In this document: in pieces, positions 7,543 through 59,975 of the stretch
Position numbering within the stretch: position 1 is the stretch's first letter
Layout of the letters: each line of letters starts with the position of its first letter
Source: Bdellovibrionales bacterium CG10_big_fil_rev_8_21_14_0_10_45_34
Lineage (GTDB): Bacteria > Bdellovibrionota > Bdellovibrionia > Bdellovibrionales > 1-14-0-10-45-34
DNA: 64,000 bases
Direction: 5' to 3'
Assembly (NCBI GenBank): GCA_002778785.1
Contig: PEZS01000010.1
Location: 184,671 to 248,670 of the forward strand
Position numbers and translations under genes: made by a program
The notes under the pieces: model-generated
What the model was told of the DNA's origin: nothing
Database searches by the model: none
Seen by the model: only the letters and a program-made list of their open reading frames with translations

Positions 7543-7827
7543 TTACTCGTTATGCCAGCTGACTTCGATCTTATTCCCGTCAGGGTCAAAGATGAAGAAA
7601 CTCGCGAACTGATTTTCTTTATGCATAAGATCACGAGCGAACTGAATATTCAGTGATTTACATTTCTTATACATGGCTAAAGCCTCTTGTTCCGAAGCCA
7701 AGCAAAATCCTAGATGATACCAGCTCGGGAACTTAGGAAGTTCATCAACAGGATCAATTGCGATTAAAAAGCCTGCTTCGTTATCCAGAAAAACTCCAGG
7801 ATCATGGTCGAACTTCTTCTTAACATT
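7543..7827 (-). pseudogene. 5'-truncated glyoxalase/VOC-family gene fragment
   Basis: My own minus-strand translation gives ...FDHDPGVFLDNEAGFLIAIDPVDELPKFPSWYHLGFCLASEQEALAMYKKCKSLNIQFARDLMHKENQFASFFIFDPDGNKIEVSWHNE*. The frame is closed upstream by a TGA at 7830-7828. There is no start codon before an internal Met that is 43 codons from the end, so the N-terminal beta-alpha-beta module is missing. Confidence 0.55.
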
Positions 7828-7857
7828 TCAGTGAGCCTGTCGGGCTCCGCACTATTG

Positions 7858-8280
7858 CTAAGCTGCTACGTTCCCGAGCTTGTGGCTATAAACCATATTG
7901 GGCAGGTGGACCTCAATGGAGTCATATTTGAACTTCAGCTTGGGGAGCTTGGTGTTTCGATTGTCCCCAACATCCTCAATAACTATGAAACCTGCCGCCG
8001 CCAAGCTGTCACAGTCCTTTTTCACGTTTGCAAAGTCCCGACCCACCAATTTAGCCAGTTGATAAACCGAAGTGGGCTTTAAGTTGTGAATTGCCGCTAG
8101 AATCATATATTTCTGCTCACTCATAAGCTTCTGATAAACGGCTACTGAGGCAAAAATTAAAACATCAGGAGACTGAATCAACCTTTTTTTGCTCTTGATA
8201 ACTTCTTTAAGTTCACTTCGGGTACGGTCTTTGAAGTCTTCCCAGGCTTCAAATGTAATTTTCAAAGTTTTACTTTTCAT
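7858..8280 (-). CDS. Winged-helix DNA-binding protein (MarR/HVO_A0114-like), putative antitoxin/regulator partner
   Basis: Track ORF of 140 aa. The stretch ...QKYMILAAIHNLKPTSVYQLAKLVGRDFANVKKDCDSLAAAGFIVIEDVG... is wHTH-like. Its ATG lies inside the end of the restored upstream gene (ATGAAAAGTAA overlap). Confidence 0.6.
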   Translation of the reverse strand: MKSKTLKITFEAWEDFKDRTRSELKEVIKSKKRLIQSPDVLIFASVAVYQKLMSEQKYMILAAIHNLKPTSVYQLAKLVGRDFANVKKDCDSLAAAGFIVIEDVGDNRNTKLPKLKFKYDSIEVHLPNMVYSHKLGNVAA

Positions 8281-8583
8281 TACTCACGATCCTTTCAGTC
8301 TCGCCAATAAAACTCTCAAAGGCTTCATAAAAATCTTTTGCATCCAAGGCGACACGGGTTGTTTTGTCCTTCGGTAGTCCCGCGTGAATATGGAACCCAA
8401 AGGGTGCATGGTTATCAACAAGAAGTCGCGCCAGGTTACTGCCCCCATATCTATCAGCACAAACCGGGCTTTAATACCCTCTGGGTATTTTTCAGTTGGT
8501 TCAACTTCATAAACTTTAAGCTCGACCCGATAGTTCTCGGTAAGTTGAAATGACTGGTCCCAAACAAGCTTCGCATCACCCAT
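8270..8583 (-). pseudogene. Frameshifted small toxin-like gene (xDNHxxxGxHxH type; TumE/DUF6516-like as I recall)
   Basis: Frame 1 reads MGDAKLVWDQSFQLTENYRVELKVYEVEPTEKYPEGIKARFVLID and then becomes junk. Another frame from about 8470 reads ...DRYGGSNLARLLVDNHAPFGFHIHAGLPKDKTTRVALDAKDFYEAFESFIGETERIVSNEK*, ending at 8270 and overlapping the next gene's ATG. The frame switch must lie within 8442-8470, which includes a C5/G5 run. Confidence 0.6.
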
Positions 8584-8595
8584 ATCTTATTGATG

Positions 8596-8625
8596 AATAT
8601 AGGTAATATTGCCATATATTGGCAA
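8596..8625 (-). promoter_or_regulatory. Putative sigma70 promoter overlapping a 17-bp perfect palindrome (candidate operator)
   Basis: The minus strand reads TTGCCA-N18-TATATT, ending 12 nt before the ATG at 8583. The palindrome TTGCCATATATTGGCAA spans 8609-8625. Confidence 0.4.
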
Positions 8626-8640
8626 GGGGATTTAGCCTTA

Positions 8641-8970
8641 ATGGAAAAGAAGCAAAGTTGGAGTGCTCACTGCTTGGAACTCAGAATCTGTGTTTCCGAG
8701 GGCGACTTTCTTGATTTCACTTAAGAATATAGGTGTTCGAGTGCGTGGCTGGGATACGGCAGAAGTAAGTACCAAAAGAGCGGGTTGGTCTATATACGAA
8801 AGATCAGGTTTTACATTTGTCTAAGAAGGCCAAGCGCATTGATCTCATGAACGTCAGTCGAGAGAAGTATTTTCGAATTTTAGCCGACGTATTCGTCGAT
8901 GGAAATTCGCTTTCAGCGCACTTGATGAAAATGGGCTTAGCTTATTCATACGATGGCGGAATCAATTCTT
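8641..8970 (+). pseudogene. Degraded thermonuclease (SNase-like) gene
   Basis: Three fragments lie in different frames: MEKKQSWSAHCLELRICVSEGDFLDFT*, then ISLKNIGVRVRGWDTAEVSTKRAGWSIYERSGFTFV*, then DQVLHLSKKAKRIDLMNVSREKYFRILADVFVDGNSLSAHLMKMGLAYSYDGGINS*. The RVRGWDTAE and ..R.LADVFVDG..L...L...GLA motifs match the SNase pattern. Confidence 0.5.
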
Positions 8971-9170
8971 AAAACAATTTGGCGTTCCCAAGCTGCTCAA
9001 CTAAGGTATGATTGTTTTCTCTACGCAGCGAAGTATCTAAAGCCTTGAAGCCTCAAGAAAATATGAGATTCATTCCGGGTTCCCGATGGTGGTTCCGGCG
9101 TGGTGCGATTCTAGTTCCCGGCGCAGCTCTCGTTTTTCGGCCTTGGTAAATTCAATCATATCATTTCCCG

Positions 9171-9407
9171 TTAAGCACCCTTTTTATATTTTGCAAGGCC
9201 CTCTGTAATGAACTTGCGCATGAGGGTCTGGTAAGGAACTTCCATCTGCAAAGCCAACGCCTTCAGCCCTGTGATAATTTCTTCGGGCAGGTTAACGCTC
9301 GTGGGGTGTTTGCGCTTGGTCTTAGCCTTGGAATACGCATCCTTGACAGCCTTGGCGTTAAATTTGACGCTTGCATAGCCTTTTTCATTCTTTACATAGT
9401 TCGCCAT
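9171..9407 (-). CDS. BrnA-like / CopG-type ribbon-helix-helix antitoxin
   Basis: Track ORF of 78 aa. The C-terminal part SVNLPEEIITGLKALALQMEVPYQTLMRKFITEGL is typical of BrnA antitoxins. Confidence 0.6.
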   Translation of the reverse strand: MANYVKNEKGYASVKFNAKAVKDAYSKAKTKRKHPTSVNLPEEIITGLKALALQMEVPYQTLMRKFITEGLAKYKKGA

Positions 9408-9516
9408 AAAGACTCCTCTCTTTCTTATTCATTTTCCGAATATGGATGATTCGGATTCCAGATCCACGGATCGTAAAGCAAACAAACACATGCAATCTAC
9501 AAGCCACTGAATGAAC
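9385..9516 (-). pseudogene. BrnT-like toxin remnant (C-terminal ~40 codons only)
   Basis: My own translation gives (stop)VHSVACRLHVFVCFTIRGSGIRIIHIRKMNKKERSLYGELCKE*, overlapping the brnA-like ATG. It matches the BrnT C-terminal pattern ..VVYT.RG..IRIISARKA.kkEr..Y. No start codon and no N-terminal half are present. Confidence 0.45.
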
Positions 9517-9718
9517 TTAAAAGCCTCCATAGTGATTTACACTATAATACACTGTTATTCACTACGTCAAGAAATCGTTTTCGGCCAGCGAGTTAAGAGT
9601 GGTTTGGTAATTTAAGGTAAAAGACAATGTATGAAAGCAGGGCATTCCCTTGGGGAAACACCCACAAATGGACATCGAGCTCAAGGTAAATTTGCACCAA
9701 AGCCCGATTCCTAGAATC

Positions 9719-10144
9719 TCAGTAACAGTTTGGGTTTTTTGTGTGAGGAGGGCAATGAAAGTCCTTAACGGGATTTTTTGCCTCATGGCAATTGAGTCTT
9801 GTTGAATAGCCGCCTTCAAAAACTAACGTTTGATAGGGGTTATTTGCAATTCGAGTAAAGTGATCGATGTAAAAAACATCGGGCAACTGATCATTGGATT
9901 GAGGGGACTTTTCAAATCTTTGGACATGTCCACCAGCATCGTAAGTTGTTTGGGCAAGCATGTATTCTGCCCAATAGTTGGCTCGTCCATTCTTGCCAAA
10001 CCAAAGAACCGCGTCATTGCTTCCCTTGAAGTGAACCGAGTAGCCGTAATAGTTCGCGACTTCTTCGCAGTACTCGAAATCCGCACCGTATGCTGCCTGG
10101 CCACCTATGATTAAGAGCAATGTATAAGTTAGTATCGTTTTCAT
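9719..10144 (-). CDS. Secreted hypothetical protein
   Basis: Track ORF of 141 aa with signal peptide MKTILTYTLLLIIGGQAAYGA. It is divergent from the LysR gene. Confidence 0.45.
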   Translation of the reverse strand: MKTILTYTLLLIIGGQAAYGADFEYCEEVANYYGYSVHFKGSNDAVLWFGKNGRANYWAEYMLAQTTYDAGGHVQRFEKSPQSNDQLPDVFYIDHFTRIANNPYQTLVFEGGYSTRLNCHEAKNPVKDFHCPPHTKNPNCY

Positions 10145-10220
10145 TTTATCCCCCTTTTTGTTTGTTATCTGGAGGTAAACTCGTTTATTTCATAGTGTTA
10201 ATCAAATTAATTGATTTTAT

Positions 10221-11099
10221 ATGTACTTTAAAATAATTAAAACACTTATGGATCTTTCTAGTTTGCAACTTAAGGCATTTTTCGAGACCGCGCGTCTCGG
10301 CAGTTTTTCAAAAGCAGCTGAAGCCTTACACATCACTCAGTCGGCTCTCTCACAGCGAGTGTCGAATTTTGAAAAGGATCTTGAGATCACTCTCATAATA
10401 AGAGACCCGTCCGGACCAGTATTGACTGAGGCTGGGGAGTTACTGTTTAGGTATTGCCAACAGAACGCGGCGCTTGAGAAAGAGGTTCTGGGGCAACTGG
10501 TTTTGGGGAAGGACCAGTTGGCGGGCGTGATTCGCATTGCGGGATTTTCTTCGGTTTTACGATCAGTCATTATACCAAGCCTTGCCCAGTTTCTAAGGTC
10601 TCACACCCATGTTCAGTGCGAGTTTCAGAGTTGTGAGGTCAAGGATTTGGCCGAAGTGCTAAGGACTGCTCGTGCGGAATTAGTCGTTATGGATTATCGC
10701 CTATGTAAGAGCGGAGTTGTGGAAGTGGTGTTGGGGCAAGAAGAGTACGTTGTGATTGAAAGTGCTAAACTGGCAAATTGCAAAGATGTTTATTTGGACC
10801 ATGGCCCTCATGACAACGCCACCGAGTCGTTTTTCAAGTTTCAATCACAAAAGCCTATGGCGTTTAGGAGAACCTTCATGGGGGATGTCTATGGCATTTT
10901 GAATGGAGTTGAAATGGGTTTGGGCAAGGCGGTTATGTCTAAACACCTGCTAAAGGGTAACAATAAAATAAAAATTAAAAAAAGCCACAGAAGGTATTTT
11001 AGGGATGTCACTCTTCATTACTACGAGCAACCCTATTATTCTAAGTTACAGTTGGCGATAGTTCAGGAGCTTAAGTTAAATACCCCTAAGTTTCTTTGA
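10221..11099 (+). CDS. LysR family transcriptional regulator
   Basis: Track ORF of 292 aa with the HTH LQLKAFFETARLGSFSKAAEALHITQSALSQRVSNFEKDL. The true start may be the internal Met at MDLSSLQ. Confidence 0.85.
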   Translation: MYFKIIKTLMDLSSLQLKAFFETARLGSFSKAAEALHITQSALSQRVSNFEKDLEITLIIRDPSGPVLTEAGELLFRYCQQNAALEKEVLGQLVLGKDQLAGVIRIAGFSSVLRSVIIPSLAQFLRSHTHVQCEFQSCEVKDLAEVLRTARAELVVMDYRLCKSGVVEVVLGQEEYVVIESAKLANCKDVYLDHGPHDNATESFFKFQSQKPMAFRRTFMGDVYGILNGVEMGLGKAVMSKHLLKGNNKIKIKKSHRRYFRDVTLHYYEQPYYSKLQLAIVQELKLNTPKFL

Positions 11100-11202
11100 A
11101 TGTGCTAATTGAAGTTCGAATCCGGATTCGACATGGATCCGCTTGGGCAGAAATTTGGTGTCCCCAAGTATGGGGGGTTCAAACTGCGTGTGCTGAAATA
11201 GC

Positions 11203-11625
11203 TTATTGAATCGGCTTGTAACAACACTTTTTGTGAATTTTAACCTCTATGACTTTTTCTAGTTTGTTATCAGGGATAAACACAAGATGCCAGATCTCTT
11301 TGCTTTCACCGGGGTATGGCATAATTTTGTATGCGTAAATTGTGTCACTAAAAAAGTAACTGTCGGGGTCGCCAAGCTCAGTACGCACCAGTTTCATGGG
11401 CTTGCCCACGTATAGCTGATTGACTACAATGTGAACAGCCATCGACTCACGTTTCGTATGGTCGCCATTTTTAAATAAACTTTTATCAAGTTTTTTTATT
11501 CCCCATTTTTTTTGTGCTTCACTTGGGGACATGAAGTCTCCACGATAATATCCTGAGCTAGCAAATGCTATAAAGCAATATAAAGGCAAGAGTGCTGAGA
11601 ATAGGGCGAATCCTTTAAATTTCAT
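11203..11625 (-). CDS. Secreted hypothetical protein (last gene of the 4-gene cassette)
   Basis: Track ORF of 140 aa with signal peptide MKFKGFALFSALLPLYCFIAFASS. There is a 4-nt ATGA-type overlap with the upstream gene. Confidence 0.45.
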   Translation of the reverse strand: MKFKGFALFSALLPLYCFIAFASSGYYRGDFMSPSEAQKKWGIKKLDKSLFKNGDHTKRESMAVHIVVNQLYVGKPMKLVRTELGDPDSYFFSDTIYAYKIMPYPGESKEIWHLVFIPDNKLEKVIEVKIHKKCCYKPIQ

Positions 11626-12281
11626 TTTGCCTCCTTTGGGATGGGCAGTCCAGGACTTATAACGTCAAGATTTTTATTTTGAAGTTCCTCAATTGCTTTG
11701 GCTTCGAGTGTTTTTTCGTTCCACTTGTTGTTTTTAAGAAGAGCTTCGGCCGCGGATTGACCGCGTTCGTTGTTAAAGATATCCATTTGCTTTTCACGGT
11801 TTGATTGGAGCGGGTTGGTTTCGTGAGCATCGAGATATTCTTTTGCTTTTTGTCGGCCCAGTTCCTTGGTTAGCAGGCCGGCCCAAACAAAGTGCCTAAA
11901 GGCATCACTCTCGTCATTAAGGTCTTGGTTAGGGAAGTTGCGGTTGGTAGCATCTTCCGCACGACCTTTTAGCTTATACACGGAGTAGGCTTGTTTAGGA
12001 TTTTTAACGACAAGTTCTTTCTCAGCCTGGGTTAATCCTGGGTAAAAAACAAGTTTTGAAAGTAATGACCCTTTTTCTTTGGGCTTACACAATTCATCGC
12101 ATTGGTTTGGGCACATAAAGGTGCCCATGTCTGTCATTAGCGTCGCACAGTTAAGTTCGCAATTTTTTGAACCCGTTTCAAGCTTGCTTCCTCTAAACCA
12201 ATCGACACAATCCGGGTCAGCTGCGGTAGCGTTGCTTACGATTGAGAGGAGAGCGAAAAAAGTAATCCTATTAAGCCACAT
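11622..12281 (-). CDS. Secreted Cys-rich protein with a DUF6973-like C-terminal domain
   Basis: Track ORF of 219 aa with a signal peptide. The mature N-terminal ~50 aa contain 8 Cys. The motif DAFRHFVWAGLLTKELG...HE...MDIFNNERG resembles the DUF6973 pattern as I recall it. Confidence 0.5.
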   Translation of the reverse strand: MWLNRITFFALLSIVSNATAADPDCVDWFRGSKLETGSKNCELNCATLMTDMGTFMCPNQCDELCKPKEKGSLLSKLVFYPGLTQAEKELVVKNPKQAYSVYKLKGRAEDATNRNFPNQDLNDESDAFRHFVWAGLLTKELGRQKAKEYLDAHETNPLQSNREKQMDIFNNERGQSAAEALLKNNKWNEKTLEAKAIEELQNKNLDVISPGLPIPKEAK

Positions 12282-12591
12282 TAATCTTAACTTCTGCGTT
12301 TGGATAAATTGTGTTTAAAAATTTCATGAGCCGATCTATTGTGAACTCTTCTATATTATAATGGACAACCTTGCTGATCAGGGATTCGTTCTCACCAATC
12401 TTTTCGGCAAGCTCTCTTTGAGTCATACGTTTTTTGTTTTTGTAAATTACGATTTCCTGGCAGATGGCGTACTTAGTGCGATCTATGGCAGAAGCATCTT
12501 TGGGTAAAACCTTAGACGCAGGTCCTTTTGAAAGTCGTTCACGCACTTCTTTTAATTCAGCATCTGAAGGAAATTTTGTTTGTTTGCCCAT
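12271..12591 (-). CDS. XRE-family HTH protein (COG5606/HigA-like antitoxin architecture)
   Basis: Track ORF of 106 aa with the HTH MTQRELAEKIGENESLISKVVHYNIEEFTIDRLMKFL. It starts 6 nt after the upstream small gene and overlaps the downstream gene by 11 nt. Confidence 0.7.
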   Translation of the reverse strand: MGKQTKFPSDAELKEVRERLSKGPASKVLPKDASAIDRTKYAICQEIVIYKNKKRMTQRELAEKIGENESLISKVVHYNIEEFTIDRLMKFLNTIYPNAEVKINVA

Positions 12592-12597
12592 TTTATT

Positions 12598-12897
12598 TTA
12601 CCTCCGATCAACGCGAAATGCGTTGATGACTCCTAAATAATCATCAGAAATACAAATAAGAAGCACGAGGCGAAATGGTGAATTGTTTTTCAGTACAGGT
12701 TCGACGGTGAAATATTGAAATTCGCCATGCACTTCTTCAAGAGGAAAAGTTTGACCATCTAATGCTTGAATAAGATCAAGAATTAATTGGTCATTAACCG
12801 ATTCAGCATGCTTTTCCTTGTAATGCTGATCGATAATGACTCGATTTAGATTTCTACCGTTGATATTTATTCTTAGGTTATATTTTGGTCGAGTCAT
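12598..12897 (-). CDS. Uncharacterised small protein, toxin-like by position (upstream of the XRE gene)
   Basis: The track ORF is 12598..12915. I prefer the ATG at 12897 (MTRPKYNLRININGRNLNRVIIDQHYKEKHAES...GVINAFRVDRR) because the TTG at 12915 lies inside the predicted promoter. Confidence 0.45.
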   Translation of the reverse strand: MTRPKYNLRININGRNLNRVIIDQHYKEKHAESVNDQLILDLIQALDGQTFPLEEVHGEFQYFTVEPVLKNNSPFRLVLLICISDDYLGVINAFRVDRR

Positions 12898-12905
12898 CAA
12901 AACAG

Positions 12906-12936
12906 ACTCTACCAAAGTTTGACAAATTTGTCAAAC
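12906..12936 (-). promoter_or_regulatory. Consensus-like sigma70 promoter embedded in a perfect 20-bp palindrome
   Basis: The minus strand reads gTTTGACAaatttgtcaaactttggTAGAGT, that is TTGACA-N17-TAGAGT. The palindrome GTTTGACAAATTTGTCAAAC (12917-12936) abuts the CCA end of tRNA-Glu. The -10 element ends 8 nt before the ATG at 12897. Confidence 0.5.
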
Positions 12937-13012
12937 TGGCGTTCCCACGGGGATTCGAACCCCGGTATCCACCGTGAAAGGGTGGTGTCCTAGGCCTCTA
13001 GACGATGGGAAC
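12937..13012 (-). tRNA. tRNA-Glu (anticodon UUC), CCA encoded
   Basis: The reverse complement is GTTCCCATCGTCTAGAGGCCTAGGACACCACCCTTTCACGGTGGATACCGGGGTTCGAATCCCCGTGGGAACGCCA. It folds by hand into a cloverleaf with a 7-bp acceptor stem and anticodon loop CTTTCAC. Confidence 0.95.
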
Positions 13013-13140
13013 ATTGCTGAGGCAAAAGAGGTATGAATCTGCCAGAGATTTCTTTAATGAACAACTTTTTCTTCAAGAATTTAGCTCAACTATAAAGGGG
13101 ACACACAAAAAGAGCCGCGGGATTATCAACCCTTGCGAAA

Positions 13141-13216
13141 TGGTGAGCCGCGATGGACTCGAACCATCGACCCCATCCTTAAAAGGGATGTGCTCTACCG
13201 ACTGAGCTAGCGGCCC
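13141..13216 (-). tRNA. tRNA-Lys (anticodon UUU), CCA encoded
   Basis: The reverse complement is GGGCCGCTAGCTCAGTCGGTAGAGCACATCCCTTTTAAGGATGGGGTCGATGGTTCGAGTCCATCGCGGCTCACCA. It folds into a cloverleaf with anticodon loop CTTTTAA. Confidence 0.95.
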
Positions 13217-13270
13217 CTGCAATTGGAAAGACCCTAAGTTCTAAAAGCAGGCCCCCATTGTGTCAACGCT

Positions 13271-26301: not shown

Positions 26302-27421
26302 ATGTCATTGGCAACAGAGTTGGGTGAGCTGAATGGTCGAGTGGCGAATCTTCAGGAGGAACTGAGCAAATTGCGGAGGTATCTTTGACGTCGAACGCCG
26401 TAAGGCTCGACTCGAAGAGGTCGGTAACTCTTTAAAGAACCCCGCTGTCTGGGAAAAGCCAGCTGAGCTTCAGAAGTTCAATAAAGAAAAAGTACTCCTC
26501 GAAAAGTCTCTAGAAACTTGGAGCTCTTTTGAGTCTGGCGTTTCAGACGCTTTAGTCCTACTTGGGTTTGCTAAAGAAGATGACGATGAAAATTCCTTTG
26601 AAGAGCTTAAACAATTAGTTAAGAGGCTCGAAAAACAGTCTGAAGATCTAGAACTTGAAAAGATGCTTCGAGGCGAGACAGACGCCAACTCGGCGTATCT
26701 TTCTATCAATTCGGGCGCAGGAGGTACAGAGGCCTGTGACTGGGCCGATATGCTTTTTCGAATGTACACTCGGTATGCCCAAAATAGTGGTTTTAAAGTG
26801 GAGATACTCGACATCTCCCATGGAGAAGAAGCGGGAATAAAATCTGCAACCATACAGATTCAGGGCCCATTCGCGTACGGATTTCTCAAGGCAGAAAATG
26901 GGGTCCATAGGTTGGTGCGAATAAGTCCGTTTGATTCAAACGCAAGAAGACATACCAGTTTTGCATCGGTTTTTGCTTGGCCAGAGATCGATGATGAGAT
27001 CGAGATCGAAATTCGCACCGAAGACTTAAGAATTGATACCTATCGCTCGAGTGGTGCGGGTGGTCAGCATGTCAATAAAACTGACTCCGCCGTACGAATG
27101 ACACATATTCCGACGGGTATAGTTGTACAGTGTCAGAACCAGAGAAGCCAGCATGCCAATAGAGACAAGGCTATGAAAATGATGAAGGCAGCTCTCTACG
27201 AGAGAGAAGTAGAAGAGCGCAATAAGCTGAAAGATGAAGTGGAGTCGACAAAAAAAGCGAATGAGTGGGGAAGCCAAATTCGCTCTTATGTGATGCAGCC
27301 CTACCAGCTCGTTAAAGACCACAGAACAGGCTATGAAACGAGTCAGGTTCAAGATGTTATGAACGGGGATCTAGACGCATTCATCAAGTCTTACTTAAGA
27401 AGTTCCACGGCTGGGATATAA
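26302..27421 (+). CDS. prfB: Peptide chain release factor 2, join(26302..26385,26387..27421) via programmed +1 frameshift
   Basis: Frame 0 reads MSLATELGELNGRVANLQEELSKLRRYL and then TGA. Frame +1 continues DVERRKARLEEVGNSLKNPAVWEKP... into track ORF 26663..27421, which carries the SPF and GGQ (SGAGGQHVNKTDSAV) motifs. Confidence 0.95.
26375..26389 (+). promoter_or_regulatory. prfB recoding site (internal SD-like GGAGG + slippery CTT TGA C)
   Basis: The sequence is GGAGGTATCTTTGAC. It is essentially the canonical RF2 autoregulatory frameshift cassette. Confidence 0.9.
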
Positions 27422-54420: not shown

Positions 54421-54422
54421 CC

Positions 54423-54602
54423 CTGCTGCAGATACGCAGCGCTCAACGTCGTTGCCTTCGAGTCTCCTTCGCTGCGGCCTATTTGCATAGGCCTCGCTCA
54501 TTCGCTCTTTGGCGCCTTGTTGAGCTTGCGTCTCTTTGCAGGGCTGGGGCCTTGCAGCTGCAGCATTTTGAATCGCGAGTCTGCTGCAGATACGCAGCGC
54601 TC
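54423..54602. repeat. Two copies of a 22-nt direct repeat (CTGCTGCAGATACGCAGCGCTC) in a GC-rich non-coding block
   Basis: The copies are at 54423-54444 and 54581-54602. Each contains the small hairpin GCTGC-AGATAC-GCAGC. The first starts 3 nt after the pilR stop. Confidence 0.9.
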
Positions 54603-54732
54603 TTGAAGAATTGCAAAAGCCTCTTCAAACACTCAGACATCCGTTCGGCAGCAGCGCTCGCTGTGCGCGAGCACTGCACCGATCCGAACTCGTATTTGAT
54701 GAGGCTTTTGCAAGTCTTCAGGAATTTCGTCC

Positions 54733-54932
54733 TTAGGGAAGTCCGTCTGGAAAGATTAGATGTTGGAGCTTCTCAAAGTTTTTTCTGTAGCGTGCTTTCT
54801 CTTTCGCAACTTGTTCGTGTCTTTTCACTGTCTTTGGAAACTCATTGAAAACCTTTTGAAGTTCCGCGGAGGGGACGACTTTATCCTGTTTCTTTGTAGA
54901 GCTGAGAATTTTTTTGATTTGCGTTTACTCAT
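54733..54932 (-). other. Possible small ORF interrupted at an A7 tract (very tentative)
   Basis: The ATG at 54932 gives MSKRKSKKF... and then stops early. The frame after the A7 run (plus-strand T7 at 54909-54915) reads ...ILSSTKKQDKVVPSAELQKVFNEFPKTVKRHEQVAKEKARYRKNFEKLQHLIFPDGLP*. There is no clear RBS. Confidence 0.2.
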
Positions 54933-54958
54933 TGTATTCAACTTGCATTCGCAACAAA

Positions 54959-55378
54959 CTAGCGGGACTTCTGAAGTACAACTGTTGCGATAGTTTCTGC
55001 AACAAACTTCGCAAATTCGAGTGCCTCTTCGGCATCCGCTTTTTTGTAGAAATCTTGCGGGGTCAAATCTTCACTGCCATAAAACGCCAGTTCGCGGTCG
55101 CGGCGTAAGGTTCGAGAAATTTCAGTAAATTTCGGAATATGCTTTTGCAACTCCTTGGGAAGCGAAGATTTCTCGGCAATCAGAATTTCAGAAACATCAT
55201 GGACTCTGGGTACATCGATGGCTGCGTGGCGAAGTAAACCTTTGAGAGAAAGCTCCACAATTTCTTGTGCTTCTCTGACAACATCGGCCCAGGCTTCTTC
55301 TTGAAACAGGGTTTCAAGCGCCTTGAGACGTTTGAGCGATCGACTGAGATAATCTTTAGCCAAGTCTTTATTAAACAA
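54959..55378 (-). CDS. HEPN domain protein (putative toxin of the MNT/HEPN pair)
   Basis: Track ORF of 139 aa with the HEPN-type helices ...SLKGLLRHAAIDVPRVHDV... and ...RRDRELAFYG... It overlaps the upstream NTase gene by 8 nt. Confidence 0.75.
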   Translation of the reverse strand: MFNKDLAKDYLSRSLKRLKALETLFQEEAWADVVREAQEIVELSLKGLLRHAAIDVPRVHDVSEILIAEKSSLPKELQKHIPKFTEISRTLRRDRELAFYGSEDLTPQDFYKKADAEEALEFAKFVAETIATVVLQKSR

Positions 55379-55937
55379 TTCTGCCCTCTTCTTTTACCCA
55401 GTACGGATGACCATGTAGATAGTTGCGCCTAAACATTCCGCTGGCAATTTGATTTCTTAACCGACTAAGGACGCTACTAACTTCACCGGCCTTGTCGACA
55501 AGAACAATGCCCTCGAGTGCCGACTCTAACCATAGGCCAGAGGGGCGCCCGTCAACATCGAAATGAGGCAAGTGCACAAAGTGGAAAGAATAATTTTTTC
55601 TCCATGTTGGACTTTTGTGGTCCCAGGTTCTGTAGAGCTCTCGGCTGATAGGAACTGAAGGATCCACTATAACAAGCAAATCAATGTCAGAGGATGCTCT
55701 CGACTCTCCTCGAGCATGGGACCCAAAAACGACTAACCCTAAAAATCTTTCCCCAAAGAAGTTTTCACACGCCGTAGCAACTTCAGTGTAGGTATTTTGA
55801 GTTTTAGAATCTTTGATCATCGATACGATGAGATCATTCAAAGAAAGTTTTCTTTGTTCGGCTTCTTTTTTAAGTTTTGTGTGGAGCTCGCCGCCCACCC
55901 TCAGGACGAACTTGCCAGAAGGAGTCTGTCTTTTCAA
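55371..55937 (-). CDS. Minimal nucleotidyltransferase (MNT) with an N-terminal ribbon-helix-helix (Arc/HicB-like) module
   Basis: Track ORF of 188 aa. The N-terminus FVLRVGGELHTKLKKEAEQRKLSLNDLIVSMI is RHH-like. The NTase motif is GSHARGESRASSDIDLLV. Confidence 0.8.
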   Translation of the reverse strand: MKRQTPSGKFVLRVGGELHTKLKKEAEQRKLSLNDLIVSMIKDSKTQNTYTEVATACENFFGERFLGLVVFGSHARGESRASSDIDLLVIVDPSVPISRELYRTWDHKSPTWRKNYSFHFVHLPHFDVDGRPSGLWLESALEGIVLVDKAGEVSSVLSRLRNQIASGMFRRNYLHGHPYWVKEEGRIV

Positions 55938-56394: not shown

Positions 56395-56955
56395 ATGAAC
56401 GTATCTATGAAAGCACTGAGCTCCAAAAGCTCAAAGGGCTTCTCACTCATCGAGTTGATGATTGTGGTCGCCATCATCGGTATTTTGGCCGCTATTGCCG
56501 TACCGAACTTCCAAAAGTTTCAAAGAAAAGCGCGTCAGTCAGAAGCCCGAACAAATCTCTCAGCCCTGTATGCTGGGCAAAAGACTTTCTTCGTTGACTG
56601 GAACCAATATTCTTCGGATTTGATTTACACTGGCTTTGCACCAGAAGGTAACTTGGTTTACCAATATGCTATTGGGGACACTTGTGGTGATGCTCCTACA
56701 ATGCCTACTGCGATTGCTACCGCTCACAACCCGGCCAACAATACTTCGGCGGCAGTTTGTGCTGCAGCTAATGCGAACTGCGTAAATGGTCCAACTGCGA
56801 TTGCTGCTGTGGTTCCTGCCTGCGCAGTTCTTGCAGGTTCTGGTGACACTTTCTTGGCTGGTGCTGAGGGAAACATCGGAGGCGGTCAGAATGATGCCTG
56901 GTCAATTACTCAAGGAAAGGTTCTTGACAACGTTCTCGATGGAACAATCAACTAA
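56395..56955 (+). CDS. pilA: Type IVa major pilin
   Basis: The track ORF is 56317..56955. The ATG at 56395 follows GGAGGAG. The class III signal is ...SSKG|[24 protein letters not shown], with G-1, F+1 and E+5. Confidence 0.9.
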
Positions 56956-56991: not shown

Positions 56992-57027
56992 AAAAAAAGG
57001 CCCTTAACTGGGCCTTTTTTCTTTTTT
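56992..57027 (+). terminator. Rho-independent terminator after pilA
   Basis: The sequence AAAAAAAGGCCC-TTAACT-GGGCCTTTTTTCTTTTTT forms a GC stem with an A/T extension and a long T tract. Confidence 0.8.
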
Positions 57028-57084
57028 AAAGGTACGGAGTCACTTGTGGGACGCAAGGCGTCCCACAAGTGACTCCGTACCTTT
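57028..57084. repeat. 57-bp perfect palindromic hairpin element, copy 1 (27-bp stem, 3-nt loop AAG)
   Basis: AAAGGTACGGAGTCACTTGTGGGACGC-AAG-GCGTCCCACAAGTGACTCCGTACCTTT. I checked the arm complementarity base by base. Confidence 0.95.
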
Positions 57085-57145
57085 TGCGGGGAGAGCTTTC
57101 TTCGTAGAGGGATCAGGCCTATACTGGATTCAGAGGCGGATAAGA

Positions 57146-57889
57146 ATGAACAGCAATAAAAAAGTTATCATTGCAGTCGTGCTGTCGGCAGCGGTGATGC
57201 TAATTTCGCAGCAGCGAATGGAGGGCTTTAGCGAGGATTACAAAAAGAATCACGCAAGGCTGATTCCGCCGCCACAGAACCTAGATAAGTTCACCCCCGG
57301 CTATAAGCTGGTACTGGCGGATTCGCTTTGGCTGAGGGCGATACAAGACCTTGATATGTGCCAAGGTGTCAATGCGATCGGCGATCTCAAAGCAATTTCA
57401 AAGAATCGCTGCAGCCAGGGTTGGGTCTATCAAATGATCGACGTCATCACTGACCTCGATCCGCGCTACAGAATTGTCTACTCCGTTGGAGCAATCACAC
57501 TCAGTGTGATTTTGTCAGATGTTGTTGGCGCCGATAGAATCTACGCTAAAGCGATTTACCACTTTCCGAAAGATTGGGGTCTTCCTTATCGTTATGCCTA
57601 CCACTTGCTAGAAGAAACTTATGATCCGGTAAAAGCAGCACGCATGTTAACAATGGCCGCTGAAAACGGTGCTCCCGATTGGACTCGGATGTTGGCGGCA
57701 AAACTCTTAAGTGAAAATCATCGTATTGCCTACTCCTTCACGGTTCTTGGAGACTTGGCGACAAACTACCCCGAGTTTGCAGCAAATGATCGCTTCAAAG
57801 AGCGATTCCTTATGATCTGCAAAAGAGCTCGCGAGGCAGGTATAACTCTCCCTAACAATCACCCCCGCGGCCTTGAGTGCCCGCGCTGA
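57146..57889 (+). CDS. Hypothetical membrane-anchored protein
   Basis: The track ORF is 57044..57889. The first 34 codons merely read through the palindromic element. The ATG at 57146 gives MNSNKKVIIAVVLSAAVMLISQQ (signal anchor). Confidence 0.5.
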   Translation: MNSNKKVIIAVVLSAAVMLISQQRMEGFSEDYKKNHARLIPPPQNLDKFTPGYKLVLADSLWLRAIQDLDMCQGVNAIGDLKAISKNRCSQGWVYQMIDVITDLDPRYRIVYSVGAITLSVILSDVVGADRIYAKAIYHFPKDWGLPYRYAYHLLEETYDPVKAARMLTMAAENGAPDWTRMLAAKLLSENHRIAYSFTVLGDLATNYPEFAANDRFKERFLMICKRAREAGITLPNNHPRGLECPR

Positions 57890-58082
57890 AGTAGGCGCAC
57901 AAAAAATTCTCATTAAACTCAGCTGTTACTTGTAATCTCTACCACTTTCATTTGGCATCTGTTGCTTTGAATAGAAAGCAAGAATGGAGTCAGTTCGGGT
58001 TTGACTCGACGTCGTTCTGATCCGACTTGGTCTTGACCAAAATGCACTATGACGTCGATTTGGTCAGAAGGATTTACCAATA

Positions 58083-58611
58083 GTGAAGAGATACCTTAGC
58101 TTCCCAATAGAAAATCTGGCGCTACGCCGAAAAAAGATGGTTTTTGTATCGGGTCCGCGACAAAGCGGAAAAACGACACTTAAATGCTCATTAGCCTTTT
58201 ACCCGAAAAAGTAGGAGCTCCCCTTAGCCTTCAAAGTTTAAGAGAAGATCTTGAGGTCTCCCACGCCACAGTCAAAAGATGGTTGTCGTATCTCAAAGAG
58301 CTCTACTATTGTTTTGAAATTAAGCCTTATTCAACCACTATTGGACAGACGTAGGTTTTGGTACTTTTGACCTGTTCTATTTGAGGAATAAAGAAAAGCA
58401 AGAGATCGATTTTTTGGTATCTCGTAACCGTCGACCTTGGTTTACCGCTGAGGCCAAGCTGCCGCCTCAGTCCCTCTCAAAAAGTATCTTTGCCTTTCAG
58501 AAGCACGTCAAAGTACCGCATTTTCAGGTGAGCCTCGGCGACAAGTGGAAATCACCGCATCCTCATGTGTACATTTGTGGAAGTGCGGGATTTCTTAGCC
58601 TATTACCTTGA
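58083..58611 (+). pseudogene. Degraded AAA-ATPase/DUF4143-family gene
   Basis: Fragments: VKRYLSFPIENLALRRKKMVFVSGPRQSGKTTLKCSLAFYPKK* (Walker A), then an in-frame stop, then GAPLSLQSLREDLEVSHATVKRWLSYLKELYYCFEIKPYSTTIGQT*, then a frame change to track ORF 58381..58611 (...RNKEKQEIDFLVSRNRRPWFTAEAK...). The total is far shorter than the ~400 aa typical of this family. Confidence 0.65.
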
Positions 58612-58718
58612 CACGTATTGGTTCGCCATCAGATTGACAAGAAGCTTTCAATCGCTAAATTGCTGTTTTTGCTCCAATGCCCTCAGGCGGGCGAAGACGT
58701 TTAAGGGATCTAGATTCG

Positions 58719-59837
58719 ATGGCACAAGATTATTACGAAATATTAGGCGTAGCGCGCAATGCGGATGCAGACACAATCAAGAAGGCTTATCGAAAGCTAG
58801 CTATGAAATTTCACCCCGATCAAAATCCGGGGGATAAAGCGGCCGAAGATAAATTTAAAGAGGCGGCTCAAGCCTACGAAGTACTCGGGAATGCAGATAA
58901 ACGCTCCAAATACGATCAGATAGGGCACGCGGCGTACACTCAAAGTGGAATGGGCGGGCAAGGCTACGGCGGAGCTGGCTTTCAAGACATTGATGATATC
59001 TTTGCGTCATTTGGCGATATTTTTGGCGACATGTTTGGCGGGGGCCGCAGAACTTCGCGAGGAGGCCGGTCAAAAGCAACACGTGGGGCGGATCTTCGCT
59101 ATCGGCTTCAAATAGATTTGCTCACGGTCTTAGATGGCGGCGAGCAAGAAGTAGAGTTTGAAACAGAAGATAACTGCAAACGTTGTAGCGGCAGTGGGGC
59201 AGAACCCGGTACCGCCCCCGAGGTCTGTGGTACATGCCGAGGTGCCGGCCAAGTTGTTCGTGCGCAAGGTTTTTTCTCGATGGCGACAACTTGCCCAACA
59301 TGTCACGGAAACGGGCAGCTCATCAAAAACTCCTGTAACTTGTGCCGCGGCCATGGCCGAGTCGCAGCAAAACGTCATCTCACCGTGAAGATTCCGCCTG
59401 GAGTTCGCACGGGTACACGCTTACGTGTAGCTGGAGAGGGCGAGGGAGGCTTTCGTGGCGGACCATCCGGCGATCTCTATGTAGAAATCCATGTAAAAGA
59501 CCATCCACAATTTGAGCGTGATGGTGACCACCTGATCAGTCGCTTGAAAGTTTCTTACCTGCAGGCGATTTTGGGAGCAGAAATTCAAGCCCCTGCTCTC
59601 AAGGGGTCTGAAATGGTCACAGTGCCCGAAGGCTCCCAGCCCGCAGACCTTGTCAAATTAGCCCATAAAGGTTTACCAAGTCTTAGAGGCGGGGCTCGCG
59701 GCGATCTTTACTACCGACTAGAAGTGGAGATTCCGAAAAAAATCTCGAAAGACGAAGAGAAGCTTTTGAGAGAGATCGCTTCTTCTAAAAATGAGACAGT
59801 CTCAGAGGGTGGGAACGGGCTTTTTCGGCGCAGATAA
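58719..59837 (+). CDS. dnaJ: Chaperone DnaJ
   Basis: The track ORF is 58677..59837. The ATG at 58719 gives MAQDYYEILGV. It has the HPD motif, a G/F region and four CxxCxGxG zinc-finger repeats. Confidence 0.95.
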   Translation: MAQDYYEILGVARNADADTIKKAYRKLAMKFHPDQNPGDKAAEDKFKEAAQAYEVLGNADKRSKYDQIGHAAYTQSGMGGQGYGGAGFQDIDDIFASFGDIFGDMFGGGRRTSRGGRSKATRGADLRYRLQIDLLTVLDGGEQEVEFETEDNCKRCSGSGAEPGTAPEVCGTCRGAGQVVRAQGFFSMATTCPTCHGNGQLIKNSCNLCRGHGRVAAKRHLTVKIPPGVRTGTRLRVAGEGEGGFRGGPSGDLYVEIHVKDHPQFERDGDHLISRLKVSYLQAILGAEIQAPALKGSEMVTVPEGSQPADLVKLAHKGLPSLRGGARGDLYYRLEVEIPKKISKDEEKLLREIASSKNETVSEGGNGLFRRR

Positions 59838-59858
59838 TCAGAAAAATATCGCCAATCG

Positions 59859-59915
59859 AAAGGTACGGAGTCACTTCTGGGACGCATAGCGTCCCAGAAG
59901 TGACTCCGTACCTTT
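59859..59915. repeat. 57-bp perfect palindromic hairpin element, copy 2 (27-bp stem, 3-nt loop ATA)
   Basis: AAAGGTACGGAGTCACTTCTGGGACGC-ATA-GCGTCCCAGAAGTGACTCCGTACCTTT. It differs from copy 1 by one stem position changed in both arms (G>C and C>G) and by the loop. Confidence 0.95.
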
Positions 59916-59947
59916 TGAGAAAACTGTCTCAAATCGAGACCTTGGGG

Positions 59948-59975
59948 CTTGACCAAAGCGGCAGACGCCCCAAAT
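59948..59975 (+). promoter_or_regulatory. Candidate sigma32-type heat-shock promoter upstream of dnaK
   Basis: CTTGACC-N13-CCCCAAAT compared with the consensus CTTGAAA-N13/14-CCCCATNT. It lies about 40 nt upstream of the dnaK ATG. Confidence 0.4.

Follow-up and report, generated by a model that had tools for sequence, protein, structure and literature searches.

What kind of element places the same long, perfectly paired hairpin behind pilA and again behind dnaJ? The question is raised by a 64,000-nt stretch of DNA (the window) from Bdellovibrionales bacterium CG10_big_fil_rev_8_21_14_0_10_45_34 (contig PEZS01000010.1, positions 184,671 to 248,670 of the forward strand), which carries two copies of a 57-nt palindrome. 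The hairpins belong to a family that is dispersed at low copy number. With moderate confidence, they are interpreted here as low-copy, non-coding palindromic repeats that resemble REPINs (hairpin-forming doublets of repetitive extragenic palindromic, REP, sequences) and miniature inverted-repeat transposable elements (MITEs), inserted at a few permissive intergenic sites and with stems that are corrected or selected.

Sequence, pairing and stability of the two hairpins

Copy 1 (57028-57084, no strand assigned) has the sequence AAAGGTACGGAGTCACTTGTGGGACGC - AAG - GCGTCCCACAAGTGACTCCGTACCTTT, for a total of 57 nt (27 + 3 + 27), and carries the consensus stem, with G at arm position 19. Copy 2 (59859-59915, likewise without strand) also has a perfect 27-bp stem and differs from copy 1 in the loop (ATA) and in one swapped pair (CACTTCTGGG/CCCAGAAGTG; G·C to C·G at 59877/59897), the rest being the same. 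This read-out agrees with the original prediction, made from the letters of the window, of two perfect 57-nt hairpins with 27-bp stems and 3-nt loops that differ solely in the loop and in one compensated stem pair. Stem pairing was 27/27 in copy 1, and copy 2, counted with its flanks, was returned as 30 nt at 97%.

The 24-nt arm occurs four times in the window (both arms of both copies), against an expectation of 0.00 (100 shuffles, at most 3 mismatches), and the two copies are the sole long inverted repeats of the window. Both are unchanged, base for base, in the independent assemblies ENA ERZ27293414 and Logan SRR6240784, and the pair is therefore not an assembly artefact. When folded as RNA, either strand gave -53.5 to -58.6 kcal/mol (z about -12 to -13), and DNA folding gave about -34.5 kcal/mol (z about -14 to -15). 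An arm on its own is unstructured (0 to -1.7 kcal/mol; z -0.4 to +0.8 against shuffles).

Further copies and their distribution

For the detection of further copies, a metagenome collection was scanned with the query GGTACGGAGTCACNNNNGGGACGC, an exact arm being needed for a match, and two further loci were returned (L011 and L012). A third full copy, on L011 (a 193-kb contig), has the consensus stem, the loop GGC and perfect pairing, and its palindrome reaches 31 + 1 + 31 nt. On L012 (a 333-kb contig), a full left arm and the loop ATC are followed by just 6 nt of the right arm (GCGTCC). An alignment hinted that the right flank of L012 might be a diverged arm; this was rejected, as its score is no better than that of random genomic 26-mers (p = 0.70). 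Because the flank resembles an arm no better than random genomic DNA, the L012 copy was taken as truncated. GC content is 45.8% in both contigs (45-46% in the contigs of the metagenome-assembled genome, MAG), the tetranucleotide correlation to the window is 0.90 for L011 and 0.96 for L012, and database entries for L012 proteins name a Bdellovibrionales MAG. On these grounds, L011 and L012 were taken as further contigs of the genome behind the window, or of one nearly identical to it.

In total, the family has four copies over three contigs, which represent roughly 600 kb of contigs of this groundwater MAG. The count is a lower bound, because the scan needed an exact arm and missed the window's own copies, the collection being incomplete for this organism. 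A search of the other loci and of the 78-kb ENA contig around the window, in which each 24-nt arm was allowed up to 6 mismatches, gave no extra copy. The density is roughly one copy per 150-300 kb, and copies 1 and 2 are unusually close to each other (2.8 kb apart). Similarity among the copies ends at 57 nt in the alignment, and the flanks are unrelated.

The perfect copy on L011 and the truncated copy on L012, both on other contigs, bear out the earlier proposal of a dispersed family rather than a local duplication only. The suggestion that the hairpins might be a genome-wide repeat is not supported, since just four copies were seen in roughly 600 kb and none more in the 78-kb contig. Likewise, the expectation that all variants stay perfectly paired was borne out by the third full copy and not by L012, which is without a right arm.

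Variation among the copies

The loops of the four copies are AAG, ATA, GGC and ATC: 3/3 loop positions vary, compared with 2/54 stem positions, and the three loop sites are all among the 5 variable sites of 57 (hypergeometric p = 3.4e-4). One stem pair varies among the copies; it is changed on both sides, is exactly complementary in each state, and no unpaired change was seen. The pairing-preserving double change noticed earlier is real, and its derived state sits in copy 2, since the other three copies carry G. In a swap from G·C to C·G, the intermediate is a mismatch, with no wobble state. Given this mismatched intermediate and the lack of any unpaired change, arm-to-arm copying during fold-back (quasipalindrome correction) would, judging from established knowledge, be no worse a fit than two selected mutations that arose independently.

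Genomic context of the hairpins

All four copies are intergenic, and the three full copies lie 21-97 nt past a stop codon. The type IV pilin gene pilA (56395-56955, + strand) stops 72 nt ahead of copy 1. As stated in the original prediction, a conventional terminator stands directly before this copy: the canonical intrinsic terminator of pilA (11-bp stem and T-run; 56993-57020, + strand) ends 7 nt upstream of it. The stop codon of dnaJ (58719-59837, + strand) lies 21 nt ahead of copy 2. Two protease genes converge on the L011 copy, their stop codons 97 nt and 24 nt away from it, and a bidirectional terminator lies beside it; the truncated L012 copy is located between divergent genes. Two of the three full copies therefore adjoin a canonical terminator.

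Downstream of copy 2, a putative sigma-32-like dnaK promoter (CTTGACC-N13-CCCCAAAT; 59948-59975, + strand) was read from the sequence, using a consensus from general knowledge. The spacer between dnaJ and dnaK is 179 nt here, compared with 67 and 107 nt in the relatives L017 and L018 (DnaJ about 60% identical), where the promoter type is kept and the hairpin is absent. Because the spacers of the relatives are without the hairpin, copy 2 was taken as an addition in this lineage. The nearest other DnaJ is just 62% identical, which indicates that close relatives are absent from the databases. Neither the rest of the window nor the other contigs or the loci of the relatives contained comparable long hairpins.

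The sigma-32-type promoter before dnaK (CTTGAC-N13/14-CCCCAAAT-like) was located at L017:7116-7142 and L018:7147-7175 in the relatives. The gene order in the window, dnaJ and then dnaK, is unusual. The operator of HrcA, CIRCE (controlling inverted repeat of chaperone expression; TTAGCACTC-N9-GAGTGCTAA), had no match in the window at up to 3 mismatches.

Flanks and junctions

On either side of copy 2 lies one member of an imperfect 21-nt direct repeat, TCAGAAAAATATCGCCAATCG on the left (59838-59858, + strand) and TGAGAAAACTGTCTCAAATCG on the right (59916-59936, + strand). The two members are in register and 16/21 identical (binomial p = 1.5e-6). The corresponding comparisons for copy 1 (11/22) and L011 (13/29) were not significant when the lengths tried were allowed for, and no common duplication of 2-10 nt was found across the copies. 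At copy 2, the repeat may go back to a long, old target duplication whose halves have since diverged, the hairpin between them remaining perfect.

At the other two loci, short tandem duplications straddle a junction: TACCTTTAG is present three times at the right junction of L011 (L011:1694-1722, third unit imperfect), and TGCAGATGGTAC is present twice at the left junction of L012 (L012:3818-3843). These duplications look like replication slippage at the base of a stable hairpin.

Comparison with known elements

The REPINs of Pseudomonas fluorescens SBW25 have conserved arms, a less conserved centre and common compensatory changes, and their singlets are defunct remnants (PMC3116915). The hairpins share with REPINs and REPs the extragenic position near gene 3' ends, the symmetrical hairpin, the conserved arms with a less conserved centre, the compensatory changes and the single-arm remnants. 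They differ in several respects: a REP of 20-40 nt forms a small hairpin of its own, whereas the arms described here are not imperfect palindromes; the stem is perfect over 27 bp and the centre is just 3 nt; and about four copies have so far been seen, in about 600 kb and with an exact-arm scan, compared with tens to hundreds for REPINs. The hallmark of a REP is a GT[AG]G tetranucleotide at its 5' end. The hairpin arm starts with (AAA)GGTACGG, i.e. GTAC, which is neither GTAG nor GTGG. Finally, REPINs have a cognate gene for a REP-associated tyrosine transposase (RAYT), usually flanked by the repeats, and none was found in the DNA examined (the window, the 10 kb or so ahead of it, L011 and L012; about 100 kb in all). 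The window had already been said to encode no HUH/RAYT-type enzyme, and the same holds for the whole of this DNA. The suggested REP-like identity is upheld by the extragenic position, the hairpin and the compensatory change; it is not upheld by the arms, which have neither a sub-hairpin nor GTAG, and the label is not established.

Small MITEs (Neisseria Correia/NEMIS, ERIC/IRU and RUP) are likewise short, non-coding and intergenic, with terminal inverted repeats, and as co-transcribed hairpins they are able to affect mRNA ends, which is a further likeness. In contrast to these, the element consists of two inverted arms only (57 nt), a layout in which terminal inverted repeats are present trivially; it lacks a short target duplication of constant form (e.g. 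TA), and no parent insertion sequence (IS) with the same ends was found in plasmids, phages or viral contigs.

As in bidirectional intrinsic terminators, an A-tract, a GC-rich stem and a T-tract are found past stop codons (3/3 full copies). A terminator scan flagged both copies of the window (copy 2 on both strands), and did so only by trimming the stem; the T-run of 3-4 nt pairs with the A-run. The differences from intrinsic terminators are the 27-bp stem (the other terminators here have 11 bp or less), the T-tract of only 3-4 nt, the use of one sequence at unrelated loci and, at two sites, the doubling of an existing terminator. The inverted DNA-uptake-sequence terminators of Neisseria and Haemophilus are similar in that inverted repeat pairs follow genes and the organism bears type IV pili, but DNA-uptake sequences are 9-12 nt long and present in hundreds to thousands of copies, whereas a 27-nt arm was found here in a handful.

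Two further candidates were rejected: a telomere-resolvase (tel) site, because the centre is asymmetric and variable, and an integron attC site, for which extrahelical bases, imperfect pairing and an integrase would be expected and are all absent.

Proposed origin and maintenance

In the interpretation as REPIN/MITE-like repeats, the element would be two 27-nt inverted arms around a 3-nt centre and nothing more, and the family would have spread to several intergenic sites of a Bdellovibrionales genome. Copies would persist where they are harmless (past gene 3' ends, beside terminators) and would decay elsewhere. A change in one arm may be removed, or copied onto its partner, as the strand folds back during replication or repair (hairpin-templated correction of a quasipalindrome), and selection on folded single-stranded DNA or RNA may add to the upkeep of the stem. 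The unpaired centre would be free to vary, or may even be prone to change. When transcribed, the element would fold into a hairpin (about -55 kcal/mol) with U3-4 behind it, and for this reason it could act as a secondary transcription barrier or a 3'-end protector in either direction. A role as terminator is not needed, because two copies duplicate an existing terminator and the relatives manage without one. The family itself, its sites, the perfect pairing, the variable loops and the lack of a hairpin in the dnaJ-dnaK spacers of the relatives are shown by the data, and mobility, the correction mechanism and any effect at the RNA level are inferred.

Several observations weigh against this interpretation. 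Only four copies are at hand, and a true empty site from a close relative is lacking. A short target duplication is not consistently present, the flanking repeat being significant at copy 2 alone, and the distance of 2.8 kb between copies 1 and 2 could mean local duplication instead of transposition. No transposase of any kind was found in the same 100 kb or so, and the arms lack a REP sub-hairpin and GTAG. By blastn, no match was obtained in 72,556 plasmids or 50,697 phages, and no pattern match was obtained in viral contigs.

For the detection of other traces, peptides from the open frames of the hairpin were used in a protein search for spurious open reading frames over other copies, and no match was obtained. 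Rfam returned only two tRNAs in the window at the gathering threshold, and only generic hairpin matches at a permissive threshold (best 29 bits, compared with a threshold of 45-70). Literature searches (hairpin sequence; Bdellovibrio REP/RAYT) gave just primers and unrelated papers.

The family is a clean, minimal, arms-only palindromic repeat of 57 nt from Bdellovibrionota, a group for which no such elements were found in the literature searched. Its invariant stem, hypervariable 3-nt centre and drifting flank make it a natural case for the question of templated correction or selection. The hairpin sites may influence the transcript ends of dnaJ and pilA, and they can disrupt or mislead the assembly of metagenomes. 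The finding is real, though ordinary in kind, and opens no long-standing question.

Alternative explanations

An explanation that we consider unlikely, though worth weighing, is that the hairpin serves the host as an RNA or transcription module (a bidirectional terminator, an insulator, a 3'-end stabiliser, possibly an RNase III site) that was copied by recombination and selected for its RNA structure. The position of all three full copies just past stop codons, the extremely stable RNA folds and the compensated stem change would be expected of such a module; the A3-stem-T3/4 layout reads alike on both strands, both of which are flagged by the terminator scan, and copy 2 is the sole terminator-like structure from dnaJ to the dnaK promoter. 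However, two of the three full copies would be redundant, standing beside a good canonical terminator (bidirectional in L011), the T-run is just 3-4 nt and partly paired, the other terminators of the window have stems of less than 14 bp, and the relatives have no hairpin at all in the dnaJ-dnaK spacer. Moreover, the sequence of the 27-bp stem is itself conserved, which selection on structure only would not require. The hairpin might instead be a true REP/REPIN or another recognition hairpin, cut and mobilised in single-stranded form by a HUH Y1 enzyme (RAYT or an IS200/IS605 TnpA) encoded elsewhere. We regard this as rather doubtful: the REPIN-like traits (extragenic position, hairpin, conserved arms, variable centre, compensatory change, singlet remnant), the absence of a fixed short target duplication, as in HUH elements, and insertion sites that adjoin other hairpins or terminators speak for it, but the arms have no hairpin of their own, the 5' end is GGTAC and not GT[AG]G, the apparent copy number is low, no Y1_Tnp gene was found in the DNA examined, and the perfect 27-bp stem is without the bulges or mismatches that such enzymes generally recognise.

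Mobility might also be dispensed with, if segmental duplication or gene conversion produced the copies, or if they are remnants of the terminal inverted repeats (TIRs) of a lost DDE-type IS, i.e. an inactive 'TIR-only' MITE. Copies 1 and 2, at their short distance, bracket a variable segment with a decayed DUF4143 ATPase gene, copy 2 stands within the 21-nt direct repeat, and copies are few, all of which would agree with this origin. It is nevertheless improbable, as similarity ends exactly at 57 nt in every copy, unlike in a segmental duplication, the other copies are located on contigs of 193 kb and 333 kb, and no IS with such ends was present in the plasmid or phage collections.

Basal-stem resemblances in other phyla

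The GTDB representatives (596 Gb, source genome not included) were scanned for the 11-bp basal stem with any interior, and eight loci were returned (L001-L008), in six unrelated lineages. Hairpins with the basal stem GGTACGGAGTC/GACTCCGTACC are present in MAGs of Planctomycetota, Verrucomicrobiota and Gemmatimonas (e.g. L002:4164-4220, L003:5951-6007, L004:2122-2183, L007:2912-2973 and L006:2178-2237). The Verrucomicrobiota pair (L004 and L007) also has the apical GTGGGACG(C) of the window element, with p about 0.01-0.02 by a rough estimate. In the Planctomycetota loci (L002 and L003), extra direct copies of the exact GGTACGGAGTC lie beside the hairpin, and the Gemmatimonas locus (L006) consists of GGAGTC-type units that make up a nested palindrome about 180 nt long.

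Most of these matches are compatible with chance: by our own estimate, made without a control, an 11-mer is expected about 3x10^5 times in 596 Gb, and hairpins are abundant. That the loci form a cross-phylum class of structured repeats, read by one conserved hairpin-specific enzyme, is very improbable. If it were true, the basal stem, the hypervariable loops and the long, variable flanking duplication could mark a mobilisation other than by REP/RAYT or DDE enzymes, and this would be the sole route from the hairpins to something more novel.

Neighbouring genes and other observations

The genes named in the original prediction around the two hairpins (pilA, dnaJ and a decayed AAA/DUF4143 ATPase) were all recovered, and the identity of dnaK was confirmed as well. 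The ATPase remnant (AAA_14/DUF4143; 58083-58611) lies between the hairpins as three short reading frames and matches Pfam DUF4143 with E = 7e-12. In the relative L017, pilR stands close before dnaJ. Here, the interval from pilR to dnaJ contains a HEPN/nucleotidyltransferase pair, pilA, copy 1, a gene whose 247-aa product matches nothing in Pfam, and the ATPase remnant. Given the proximity of pilR and dnaJ in L017 and the several genes inserted here, the interval is a variable region.

The HEPN/nucleotidyltransferase pair (54959-55937, - strand), situated between pilR and pilA, encodes a HEPN protein (139 aa) that overlaps a nucleotidyltransferase (188 aa) with an N-terminal HicB-like domain, and is a toxin-antitoxin-type pair of the MNT-HEPN kind. 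Ahead of it lie about 540 nt without a convincing gene (54421-54958). A sigma-54 promoter was looked for near pilA and none was found.

Elsewhere in the window, prfB (release factor 2) has a classical programmed +1 frameshift site at 26340-26400, composed of GGAGG, a 3-nt spacer and CTT TGA C (CTTTGAC at 26383); the gene caller gives just the 252-aa downstream part. A cluster of small genes (7600-13220; CopG-like, HTH_37, DUF6973, HVO_A0114-like and several with no Pfam match) adjoins tRNA-Glu(TTC) and tRNA-Lys(TTT) (12937-13216, - strand), and may be a small accessory islet associated with these tRNA genes.

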